NCBI RefSeq assembly: GCF_022846255.1
Contig: NZ_AP025682.1
Length of the DNA stretch: 64,000 bases
DNA from: Escherichia coli
GTDB lineage: Bacteria > Pseudomonadota > Gammaproteobacteria > Enterobacterales > Enterobacteriaceae
Reading direction: 5' to 3' (one strand)
The notes below the pieces were generated by a model that saw nothing but the letters and a program-made list of their open reading frames with translations, was not told where the DNA came from and did not search any database. Made by a program: the position numbers and the translations under genes. Positions 11,326 through 59,085 of this stretch are shown piece after piece (the stretch's first letter is position 1; the number at the start of each line of letters is the position of its first letter).

Positions 11326-11648
11326 TTTTCGATCCTTTCATTGTGTTGTCGCACATCCCTGGTGCGTTCTGTCGACGCATCTTTCAGGATGTAACAAAGT
11401 GTTTGCAAGGTCGAGTATAAGGAAAGTTACAGCTTCGGGAAGCGAAAAATGCTGGATTTTAAAGAGAGGTTATATTTCGCAACTTAATGGTTACATTTAT
11501 TTAACATAAAAATAAAGCCCAACGTGCGGCTTCCAGACTGATGACAACGTCAAAAAAGTACTCGGTCAGTCCCCTCGCCCCTTTTGGGGAGAGGGAGAAA
11601 ACGGTGCTCATGTTGATGACAGAGTACACGGCTTAGGCAGATTAAAAA

Positions 11649-46360: not shown

Positions 46361-47182
46361 ATGAGCGATATGCACTCGCTGCTGATAGCGGCAATATTGG
46401 GTGTGGTCGAAGGATTGACAGAATTTCTGCCGGTATCCAGCACGGGCCATATGATTATTGTCGGTCACTTGTTGGGGTTTGAGGGCGACACGGCGAAAAC
46501 CTTTGAAGTCGTGATCCAGTTAGGATCAATTCTGGCGGTAGTAGTGATGTTCTGGCGGCGTCTGTTTGGCCTGATTGGCATCCACTTTGGTCGCCCGTTG
46601 CAGCACGAAGGAGAAAGCAAAGGTCGTTTAACGCTGATCCACATCTTGCTGGGGATGATTCCGGCGGTGGTACTGGGGCTGTTGTTCCACGACACGATTA
46701 AATCATTGTTTAACCCGATAAATGTCATGTATGCACTGGTCGTTGGCGGTCTGTTGCTGATTGCCGCCGAATGCCTGAAGCCGAAAGAGCCGCGTGCGCC
46801 GGGTCTTGATGATATGACCTATCGTCAGGCGTTTATGATTGGCTGTTTCCAGTGTCTGGCGCTGTGGCCGGGTTTCTCCCGTTCCGGGGCGACCATTTCA
46901 GGTGGGATGCTGATGGGGGTGAGCCGTTACGCTGCTTCCGAGTTCTCGTTCCTGCTGGCGGTGCCGATGATGATGGGCGCAACGGCGCTCGATCTCTACA
47001 AAAGCTGGGGCTTCCTGACTACCGGCGATATCCCGATGTTTGCCGTTGGGTTTATCACCGCTTTTGTGGTGGCGCTGATAGCGATTAAAACCTTCCTGCA
47101 ATTGATTAAGCGCATTTCGTTTATCCCGTTCGCCATTTATCGCTTTATTGTGGCGGCTGCGGTGTACGTTGTGTTCTTTTGA
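46361..47182 (+). CDS. uppP: Undecaprenyl-diphosphate phosphatase UppP (BacA)
   Basis: Track ORF starts at TTG 46358; real start ATG 46361 ([33 protein letters not shown]...), 273 aa. Confidence 0.93.
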
Positions 47183-47204
47183 TGTGAAGAACAGTGTCGG
47201 ATAT

Positions 47205-47365
47205 GATGCTGACGCGTCTTATCAGATTGCGTAGGCCGGATAAGGCGTTCACGCCGCATCCGGCAATCAACGCCTGATGCGACGCTCGCGCGTCTTATCA
47301 GGCCTACAACTGTCGTTGACATGTAGCCGGATAAGACGCTTACGTCGCATCCGGCAAAATATCCA
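47205..47365. repeat. REP/BIME cluster (at least 3 palindromic units) between uppP and cca
   Basis: Repeated units GCCGGATAAGGCGTTCACGCCGCATCCGGC, GCGTCTTATCAGGCCTAC and GCCGGATAAGACGCTTACGTCGCATCCGGC in alternating orientation. Confidence 0.75.
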
Positions 47366-47369
47366 ACAC

Positions 47370-48608
47370 TCACTCAGGTTTTGGGCAACGCTGTTCCTTC
47401 CAGCCAGCCACCGCCGCAATCCGCCGTCGGGTCAGCTCCTCGCGAATCTCCACACCTTTAAATCCCGCTTCAACGACGGCTTTTGTCGGCACTGACTGTG
47501 CCACTTCCCAGGCTTCGCGCAACCAGCGGCCTTGCGGGTAGTCGGCTGATTCAAAACCGGTTCTGCCGCGCACATCAGCCTCGCTGGTCAGCGCCAGTTG
47601 CTCGACACGCTGCGGTTTACGCCAGGCGTCGATGGAATCAAATAGTTTGACGATGGTTTTTGGGTTCAGCATTGGGAAGGTGTGGATGAGATCGTGAAAC
47701 TCAGCCACCAGTCTGGCTAAATCGCGAATTTCATTTGGCACGCGCAGACGCTGGCATAGTTGTTCCACTAACTTCACACCCGCCGGGCCATGACCATGAT
47801 GACGCGGCCAAAGTTCTGGTGGCGTCAGTCCTTTACCGAGATCGTGGCATAACGTTGCGAAACGGACATCGACCTGCGGACTCAGCATCGCCGCCATTGA
47901 GAGCGTCATTAAGGTATGAATACCGGTGTCGATTTCCGGATGCCACCTGGCAGGGGCCGGAACGCCAAACAGGGCGTCAATTTCCGGGAATAAAACGCGC
48001 AGTGCGCCGCAATCGCGCAGTACCTGGAAGAACACCTGGGGATTGCGGGTGGTGAGGGCGTTTTCCGTCTCTTTCCATACCCGTTCAGGCGTCAGGTGTT
48101 CCAGTTCACCCGCATGGGTCATCTCGCGCATCAGCGCCAGAGTTTCATCGGCAATACGGAAACAGAGGTGGGCATAACGCGCAGCAAAACGCGCTACGCG
48201 CAACACGCGTAACGGATCTTCGCCAAAAGCGGGGGAAACATGGCGCAACAGACGATTTTGCAGATCGCCCAGACCGTTGTACGGGTCGATAATCTCGCCG
48301 TTATCGTCCTGGGCCAGCGCATTAATGGTCAGATCGCGACGCTTAAGATCATCTTCCAGCGTGACATCCGGTGCGGCATAGCAGGTAAAACCGGTGTAAC
48401 CGGAACCGGATTTCCGTTCGGTACGTGCCAGTGCATACTCTTCATGCGTTTGCGGATGCAGAAACACAGGAAAATCGCGGCCTACCTGCTGGTAGCCCGC
48501 GTCGAGCATCTCCTGTGGCGTACTGCCGACCACCACCCAATCTCTGTCTTTGACCGGTAGCCCTAACAATGCATCCCGAACAGCACCACCGACCAGATAA
48601 ATCTTCAC
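47370..48608 (-). CDS. cca: CCA-adding tRNA nucleotidyltransferase (with HD phosphohydrolase domain)
   Basis: 412-aa [55 protein letters not shown]... Confidence 0.93.
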
Positions 48609-55223: not shown

Positions 55224-55252
55224 TTGACGCTGTTGTTTTTTCAACCTAAAGT
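55224..55252 (+). promoter_or_regulatory. Near-consensus sigma70 promoter (TTGACG-17-TAAAGT) driving the Sib antisense sRNA
   Basis: -35 TTGACG at 55224..55229, 17-nt spacer, -10 TAAAGT at 55247..55252; predicted TSS about 55259, 40 nt downstream of the ibs stop on the opposite strand. Confidence 0.5.
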
Positions 55253-55258
55253 AAAGGA

Positions 55259-55400
55259 ACAAGGGTAAGGGAGGATTTCTCCCCCCTCTGATGAGTTGTT
55301 AGTAAGTCGGGAAACTTAACAGTAACAACACAACCAGTATGATGACGAACTTCATCATAACCCTTTCCTTCTATAAGGCCCCTTCCTCGGGAGGGGCTTT
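55259..55400 (+). ncRNA. Sib-family antisense sRNA (type I antitoxin; SibD/SibE-like), ends approximate
   Basis: Transcript from the promoter above would cover the whole ibs ORF on the opposite strand and end at a GC-rich hairpin (CCCCTTCC-TC-GGGAGGGG, about 55380..55397) followed by CTTTCCCGTTT; about 140 nt, the size I recall for Sib RNAs. Confidence 0.55.
55299..55358 (-). CDS. Ibs-family type I toxin, 19-aa hydrophobic peptide MMKFVIILVVLLLLSFPTY
   Basis: ATGATGAAGTTCGTCATCATACTGGTTGTGTTGTTACTGTTAAGTTTCCCGACTTACTAA on the reverse strand with RBS GGAAAGGG 5 nt upstream; matches the Ibs consensus (MMK.VIIL..LLL.SF..Y). Below the ORF-track size cut-off. Confidence 0.8.
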   Translation of the reverse strand: MMKFVIILVVLLLLSFPTY

Positions 55401-58839: not shown

Positions 58840-59085
58840 GCTTATTCTCAGGGCGGGGCGAAATTCCCCACCGGCGGTAAATCAACTCAGTTGAAAGCCC
58901 GCGAGCGCTTTGGGTATGAACTCAAAGGACAGCAGATCCGGTGTAATTCCGGGGCCGACGGTTAGAGTCCGGATGGGAGAGAGTAACGATTCTGTCGGGC
59001 ATGGACCCGCTCACGTTATTTTGGCTATATGCCGCCACTCCTAAGACTGCCCTGATTCTGGTAACCATAATTTTAGTGAGGTTTT
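58840..59085 (+). promoter_or_regulatory. FMN riboswitch (RFN element) in ribB leader
   Basis: Conserved RFN blocks visible: GGGCGGGGCGAAATTCCCCACCGGCGGTAAA ... CCGACGGTTAGAGTCCGGATGGGAGAGAGTAACG, followed by an expression platform reaching the ribB SD (GAGG at about 59078). Confidence 0.8.

Follow-up and report, generated by a model that had tools for sequence, protein, structure and literature searches.

The spacer between the bacA (uppP) and cca genes of the window analysed here, which is a 64-kb stretch of Escherichia coli DNA, raises the question of what the palindromic repeats that fill it are, and what they would do between two genes that converge. According to the sequence and the list of open reading frames, this spacer comprises 187 bp from stop codon to stop codon (positions 47183-47369); the TGA stop codon of bacA occupies positions 47180-47182, and the stop codon of cca, read on the minus strand, positions 47372-47370. 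The region of 587 bp around the spacer is 100% identical to the corresponding region of E. coli ATCC 11775 (NZ_CP033092.2), in which bacA and cca are annotated by RefSeq as convergent genes. Three short open reading frames of this region, two on the minus strand (47137..47373 and 47267..47419) and one on the plus strand (47277..47495), were rejected as genes; they cross the repeats and are absent from the RefSeq annotation. The RefSeq annotation table of K-12 contains no REP repeat_region features for the bacA-cca spacer.

The first-pass annotation of the window described this spacer as a REP/BIME cluster with three or more REP palindromes that alternate in orientation, and results of our analysis support both parts of this description, as well as the extent of the cluster, the coordinates of which are exactly those of the spacer. 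The whole window was searched on both strands with an nhmmer profile built from the published consensus sequences of Y, Z1, and Z2 REPs (Bachellier, Gilson). This REP-specific search, which had been proposed together with the original description, recovered the REP units in the spacer (Table 1). There are four of them, in the order Z2'(+), Y(-), Z2(+), Y(-), i.e., in strict alternation; three are intact (REP-B, REP-C, and REP-D) and one is a remnant (REP-A). The consensus sequences used are supported by the perfect match of REP-B and by a match to an Rfam model that is independent of them.

Table 1. Coordinates of the genes, REP units, and other repeat-associated features of the window
Feature	Position	Strand	Basis and remarks
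REP pair after rlmG (stop 16456), first unit, Y-like	16471-16505	+	nhmmer E = 7e-5; conserved in K-12 and ATCC 11775
REP pair after rlmG, second unit	16524-16559	-	nhmmer E = 8e-4; conserved in K-12 and ATCC 11775
higB 3' remnant, 78 bp	16653..16730	+	Alignment with K-12, K-12 annotation
Perfect palindrome GCGCCGGATGCG-T-CGCATCCGGCGC, similar to REPs, in the higA-fadH spacer	17148..17176		Weak nhmmer matches; hairpin -24.7 kcal/mol
nfeR(yqjI)-nfeF(yqjH) divergent spacer, Y unit	33813-33847	-	nhmmer E = 1.5e-7; K-12 arrangement same
nfeR(yqjI)-nfeF(yqjH) divergent spacer, decayed Z2-like unit	33860-33889	+	nhmmer E = 0.19; K-12 arrangement same
Single Y-like REP, between mug terminator hairpin (35527-35551) and rpoD stop (35603)	35566..35599	+	nhmmer E = 0.0018; K-12 identical
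bacA (uppP), undecaprenyl-diphosphate phosphatase	46361..47182	+	ORF list; RefSeq annotation of identical ATCC 11775 stretch
REP-A, decayed Z2-like	47196..47230 (core 47196-47225, degenerate tail ATTGC)	+	nhmmer E = 0.5, non-significant alone; 27/37 to Z2
REP-B, Y-type	47231..47265	-	nhmmer E = 3.3e-8; 35/35 to Y consensus
Linker ATCAAC, 6 nt, joins non-GTAG ends of REP-B and REP-C	47266..47271		Sequence
REP-C, Z2-type	47272..47307	+	nhmmer E = 1.9e-7; 35/37 to Z2
Linker AACTGTCGTTGACAT, 15 nt, joins GTAG/CTAC ends of REP-C and REP-D	47308..47322		Sequence; K-12 identical
REP-D, Y-like	47323..47356 (nhmmer match 47326-47356)	-	nhmmer E = 5.7e-6; 30/35 to Y
cca, tRNA nucleotidyltransferase, converges on bacA	47370..48608	-	ORF list; RefSeq annotation

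The GTAG/CTAC tetranucleotide is present in all three intact units. In REP-B, it is found as GTAG at positions 47231-47234 of the plus strand, and in REP-C as CTAC at positions 47304-47307; of the two mismatches of REP-C to Z2, one lies in the core and the other is the base that precedes the core. REP-D (GTAGCCGG vs. the canonical GTAGGCCGG) has a 1-nt tail deletion, through which its GTAG (47323-47326) is joined to the stem, and on the cca mRNA this stem starts 14 nt past the cca stop codon. The remnant REP-A, which starts 13 nt past the stop codon of bacA and is linked to REP-B by about 0-5 nt, has ATTGC in place of the tetranucleotide; in the 79-bp allele of the spacer that is described below, its position holds an intact homologue. 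REP-B and REP-D form direct repeats of 32 nt (88% identity) with a spacing of 91 bp. Parts of the query used in our genome search recur at a median of at least 36 places per E. coli genome, with at least 40 matching pieces in 2090 records, and plasmid-borne matches account for 110 of about 177,000 REP-containing ones; an example is the perfect 35-nt copy of REP-B, i.e., of the Y consensus, on the 167-kb E. coli plasmid NZ_CP074995.1 (3070-3104). The spacer shows the features by which REPs are recognized, namely, a match of 30-40 nt to the consensus, a mismatch bulge, GTAG, a location outside genes, and numerous copies per genome. The cluster is real, and it is an ordinary E. coli REP/BIME of a kind that is already known. 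Descriptions of such clusters 3' of E. coli genes date back to the 1980s, and there is ample documentation of how their length varies among strains.

As RNA of either strand, REP-B, REP-C, and REP-D have folding energies between -19 and -22 kcal/mol (z from -4.6 to -5.4), the hairpins reaching -21, -21.7, and -19.6 kcal/mol, respectively, and stems in which 7-8 bp are followed by an internal loop and 4-5 bp, which is the mismatch bulge typical of REPs. The hairpin of REP-A is weak (-11.8 kcal/mol, z = -1.6, and -6.9 kcal/mol). The folding energy of the entire spacer is -87.2 kcal/mol (z = -7.9) for the plus strand and -91.5 kcal/mol (z = -7.3) for the minus strand. In a scan of the whole window for 38-nt hairpins, the energies of the REP hairpins were among approximately the lowest 0.5%; about 90 further sites have values of -17 kcal/mol or lower, and hence it is the match to a sequence family, and not the stability of the hairpin alone, that singles out the REPs.

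The L linker of BIME-1 carries an IHF site. Elements of this type have one Y/Z1 pair, joined by a long L linker, those of the BIME-2 type have tandem Y/Z2 pairs with a short S linker and s/l/r flanks, and atypical BIMEs represent chimeras between BIME-1 and BIME-2 (PMC3333891). None of the units in the bacA-cca spacer matches Z1 best, and the linkers of 6 and 15 nt leave no place for a long L motif. The composition is that of BIME-2, with Y and Z2 units in inverse orientation and in tandem. Given Y and Z2 units, no Z1, and such short linkers, the element is, judging by its sequence, a Y/Z2 BIME that is either BIME-2-like or atypical; as the assignment counts unit types and linker lengths alone, the designation 'atypical BIME' may be the proper one. 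With the BIME-2 and atypical BIMEs of E. coli described by Gilson, Bachellier, and Hofnung (PMC3333891), it shares the alternation of Y and Z2, the GTAG/CTAC tetranucleotides and the 2-nt mismatch bulge, as well as the tandem arrangement of units, the extragenic location 3' of genes, and the copy number that varies among strains. Unlike in a typical BIME-2, the array comprises no more than about two units, REP-A is decayed, and REP-D lacks 1 nt of its tail.

The explanation of the spacer as a Y/Z2 BIME of the structure Z2'(decayed)-Y-Z2-Y is proposed with high confidence; judging by what is published on other REPs, its most likely role between the two genes would be that of a two-way hairpin element of 3' untranslated regions. 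Since bacA and cca converge, the transcripts of both enter the cluster. Its hairpins would block 3'->5' exonucleases on both mRNAs and would cause partial, largely Rho-dependent, termination. As a consequence, the 3' ends of both mRNAs would be defined and stabilised, and convergent read-through would be limited, in a spacer that is devoid of a U-tract terminator. Such activities are known for other REPs, which shield upstream mRNA from 3'->5' decay and serve as partial Rho-dependent terminators; in particular, the REP325 array both causes partial Rho-dependent termination and stabilises the mRNA upstream of it (bioRxiv 10.64898/2026.03.23.713779). According to the same study, about 30% of convergent spacers of E. 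coli carry a REP, which correlates with higher expression of both genes, and nearly 40% of the REPs in convergent spacers fall in catalogued bidirectional terminators. The effects of REPs reported there are context-dependent, and the half-lives of mRNAs are not uniformly changed. Among the data of that study, a search for the names of the two flanking genes (bacA or uppP, and cca) gave one match only, an unrelated RNA-seq row for cca.

Two further activities of the cluster are plausible. As cited in PMC12306157, Liang, Rudd and Deutscher (2015) reported that REPs located up to 15 nt from a stop codon stall ribosomes and reduce translation. Both outer units of the spacer lie within this distance, REP-D at 14 nt from the stop codon of cca and the decayed REP-A at 13 nt from that of bacA. 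REP-D might therefore plausibly stall terminating ribosomes and damp the translation of cca; on the bacA side, such stalling is doubtful because of the decay of REP-A. The other activity concerns the cluster as DNA. Gyrase binds to BIME-2 more strongly than to BIME-1 (PMC1475751, PMC2817692), and an element of the gyrase-binding class would suit this spacer, since convergent transcription accumulates positive supercoils. It is plausible that the Y/Z2 array binds gyrase.

The copy number of REPs at this place differs strongly among strains, as revealed by a comparison of 5,426 complete E. coli genomes, in which coverage of at least 80% of the 587-bp query defined the BIME class; a comparison of REP copy number among strains had also been suggested in the first-pass annotation. 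At least five alleles of the spacer were found, and 5,382 of the 5,426 genomes fall into three classes. The BIME class comprises 2,841 genomes (52%) with forms of three to four REPs in a spacer of 180-187 bp, together with a one-REP form of 89 bp. The left junction of the window, in which the REP-A remnant abuts REP-B in a spacer of 187 bp, is shared by 353 genomes (6.5%), which are a subset of this class and include B2 strains, such as UM146 and ATCC 11775. K-12 has a spacer of 180 bp with REP-B, REP-C, REP-D, and a REP-A more decayed than that of the window. In the second class (1,281 genomes, 24%; e.g., uk_P46212), the spacer of 79-80 bp contains one different intact REP (GTCGGATATGACGC...GCGTCTTATCCGAC) that is homologous to REP-A. 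In the third (1,260 genomes, 23%; e.g., O104:H4-like strains), the spacer of 162 bp contains no REP and is occupied by an inverted BoxC/TMECO pair. The alleles appear to follow lineages. One convergent spacer with three unrelated kinds of repeats, present in roughly 52%, 24%, and 23% of genomes, could serve as a natural comparison for REP function.

The rare 89-bp allele of strain SW071619 is the K-12 form shortened by exactly 91 bp. Since this is the spacing of REP-B and REP-D, the allele represents a clean deletion between these two direct Y repeats. Derivation of the 79-bp allele from the four-REP one by a simple deletion was rejected, as the right half of the 79-bp allele is non-homologous to the window. 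The 'exceptional length polymorphism' of BIMEs is known from previous studies (PMC2817692, PMC3333891), as is the ability of TnpA-REP, the Y1 HUH transposase, to bind, cleave, and recombine BIMEs, the number of which per locus differs among strains (PMC3333891). Also in the case of the bacA-cca cluster, the origin and the changes of copy number might be explained by the handling of non-autonomous REPs by such a REP-associated tyrosine transposase (RAYT, TnpA-REP), the gene for which lies elsewhere in the genome; recombination between repeats would likewise alter the number of units. With the REPIN/RAYT (TnpA-REP/YafM) system, the cluster shares inverted REP pairs with the GTAG and the bulge that are needed for TnpA-REP binding and cleavage, and a copy number that varies from locus to locus and from strain to strain. 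It differs from that system in that the only clean event at the spacer, the 91-bp deletion, is equally explained by direct-repeat recombination or by slippage. No RAYT gene was found in the annotated portion of the window that was examined.

The BoxC motifs were named by comparison with Table 1 of PMC4666352. Like REPs, BoxC/TMECO elements are short, GC-rich, palindromic, and dispersed, and one such pair occupies the bacA-cca spacer in about 23% of genomes; they belong to an unrelated sequence family (CCCTCGCCCC...GGGGAGAGGG...GGGTGAGGGG) and are absent from the spacer of the window. In E. coli 2012EL-2448, the inverted pair in the spacer is of this intrastrand-triplex type, and the element is found at a median of five places per genome. 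A pattern search of the window revealed no full copy of a BoxC arm. A partial BoxC-like motif, CCCTCGCCCCTTTTGGGGAGAGGG, in which the third block GGGTGAGGGG is missing, is present in the sstT-alx intergenic region (11572-11595); in K-12, a tandem inverted BoxC pair is reported near the map position of this motif (Table 1 of PMC4666352).

This variety of repeats bears on the question of whether the cluster has a function at all. If the spacer is simply permissive, the cluster could be a selfish, non-functional, and decaying REPIN/BIME insertion that is tolerated between convergent genes. The finding that unrelated elements (a BIME, a single REP, a BoxC pair) fill the spacer in different lineages points in this direction, as do the decay of REP-A, the 1-nt tail deletion of REP-D, and the documented RAYT-mediated mobility of BIMEs (PMC3333891, PMC2817692). 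We nevertheless regard the lack of function as unlikely. REP-B matches the Y consensus at every position, REP-C has only one core mismatch, both units keep the bulge and the GTAG/CTAC tetranucleotides, and none of the alleles seen is without a strong palindrome in the spacer, which suggests that some hairpin is needed there. The selfish origin is compatible with a two-way hairpin element, as the two explanations agree on where the cluster came from and differ only on its present function. As about 47% of complete E. coli genomes are without a Y/Z2 array at this place, the role of the BIME in the spacer would have to be dispensable or replaceable.

The lineage-specific forms of the spacer, i.e., the four-unit BIME, the three-unit BIME, the single Y REP, the single different REP, and the BoxC pair, might, as a tentative and speculative extension, form a natural allelic series, the members of which would differ in the levels of Cca and BacA that they set by way of 3'-end stability, read-through, and ribosome stalling near the stop codon. 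Were this true, the series would be a ready-made test of REP function between convergent genes.

An RNA of its own may seem to be indicated by the match of positions 47234-47304, i.e., of the REP-B/REP-C pair, to the Rfam family RF02564 (naRNA4), which scores 83.1 bits vs. the gathering score of 59.5 and extends over the model from end to end (positions 1-77 of 77). The pair would then be a gene for a naRNA4-type, nucleoid-associated non-coding RNA that, in concert with HU, would bridge cruciform DNA and condense the chromosome. According to Qian et al. (2015), the majority of REPs are transcribed, and DNA is condensed by naRNA4 with HU (PMC4550694), and both the bacA-cca cluster and REP325 are 3'-UTR BIME-2 arrays, the former with a pair that aligns to the full Y-linker-Z2 model at 83 bits. 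However, naRNA4 is the product of the 12-unit REP325 array in the yjdM-yjdN spacer (PMC4550694), that is, of a locus other than bacA-cca. The cluster studied here has four units instead of 12, is placed between convergent and not tandem genes, and has an internal linker that is 6 nt shorter, as ATCAAC aligns to the linker of the naRNA4 model with a 6-nt deletion. The model itself is a plain Y-linker-Z2 sequence, and as the BIME from the bacA-cca spacer of K-12 scores 79.3 bits with it, RF02564 is not specific for a locus. In practice, the model detects any Y-Z2 unit of BIME-2, so that the match in the spacer is a generic one and does not indicate a second naRNA4 gene; this clarification of the match is one of the uses of our analysis. 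Moreover, the nucleoid role of REP325/naRNA4 is now disputed, as neither a measurable effect on nucleoid compaction nor HU-dependent REP-REP contacts were found in a study by a group to which one of the authors of the original paper belongs (bioRxiv 10.64898/2026.03.23.713779). A naRNA4-type function of the REP-B/REP-C pair is thus highly improbable.

Equally hard to maintain is the view that these palindromes merely look like REPs and are in fact bidirectional terminators of the ordinary intrinsic (Rho-independent) type: their location 3' of both convergent genes, their very stable GC-rich hairpins, and the presence of 78 REPs inside 306 catalogued bidirectional terminators (bioRxiv 10.64898/2026.03.23.713779) would fit it, but no T-run follows any of the hairpins on either strand, a simple consensus scan for U-tract terminators in the region 46900-47700 yielded 0 sites on both strands vs. 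1.1 expected in shuffles, and the units belong to a dispersed family with sequences at or near the consensus and dozens of copies per genome, which would not be the case with a locus-specific terminator.

Besides the bacA-cca spacer, the only places of the 64-kb window with nhmmer matches to REPs of E < 0.01 are those downstream of rlmG, between nfeR and nfeF, and between mug and rpoD. The REP units that the first-pass annotation had listed after rlmG, in the yqjI-yqjH spacer, and after the mug-rpoD terminator were all confirmed by both nhmmer and inspection of the sequence. Its further claim that REP sites are prone to rearrangement is supported for the bacA-cca spacer, which varies among strains in this way, with its five or more alleles and the 91-bp deletion between REP-B and REP-D; at the remaining three places, the number of units is the same as in K-12, and thus the presence of REPs alone does not mean instability. 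In the first unit of the pair after rlmG (16471-16505), one of the changes relative to the K-12 counterpart is compensatory, and the mismatch bulge is erased: in the window and in ATCC 11775, the unit is a perfect palindrome (GCCAGATAAGGCG/CGCCTTATCTGGC), and in K-12, it has the bulged form (GCCGGATGCGGCG/CGCCTTATCCGGC). Loss of the bulge is known to abolish the binding of TnpA-REP (PMC3333891).

The REP pair after rlmG had also been said to coincide with a breakpoint in higB, and this claim needs to be corrected. Alignment with K-12 shows that the window has a deletion of 325 bp, which comprises 88 bp upstream of higB and the first 237 bp of higB. The junction (16652/16653), where microhomology amounts to about 1 nt, is located 93 nt to the right of the end of the REP pair (16559), and since the sequence between them is homologous to that of K-12, the breakpoint is not at the REP. 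CFT073 carries this deletion too, as do many unrelated strains; it was seen in about a third of the sampled records. The higA gene of the window (16727-17143) is intact, and because the higB promoter is removed together with the first 237 bp of that gene, it is left without a promoter region of its own.

The idea of rearrangement at REPs has merit at the higBA locus for a different allele, that of the ATCC 11775 type, and not for the breakpoint that had been named. A direct repeat of 14 nt, GCGTCGCATCCGGC, brackets higBA, with one copy in an arm of the REP (16545-16558) and the other in the REP-like palindrome that follows higA (17159-17172). In the ATCC 11775-type allele, the whole higBA cassette is missing, and the missing segment is exactly the 614 bp between the two copies of GCGTCGCATCCGGC. 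This allele without higBA is either a product of REP-REP deletion or the ancestral empty site. In about 1,060 genomes (20%), coverage of the rlmG-fadH query is below 80%; of five chromosomal rows sampled from among them, four have the 237-bp form similar to that of ATCC 11775. As compared with ATCC 11775, rlmG of the window is found 500 bp earlier than predicted from ATCC coordinates, and higA is present. The best match of the window in the rlmG-fadH region, with an identity of 99.4%, is to an ST80 strain.

Elsewhere in the window, two further matches reach the Rfam gathering threshold, namely, a Sib antitoxin RNA (55224-55373), which adjoins the annotated ibsE toxin gene, and an FMN riboswitch (58840-58988) upstream of ribB, both of which are expected for this region.
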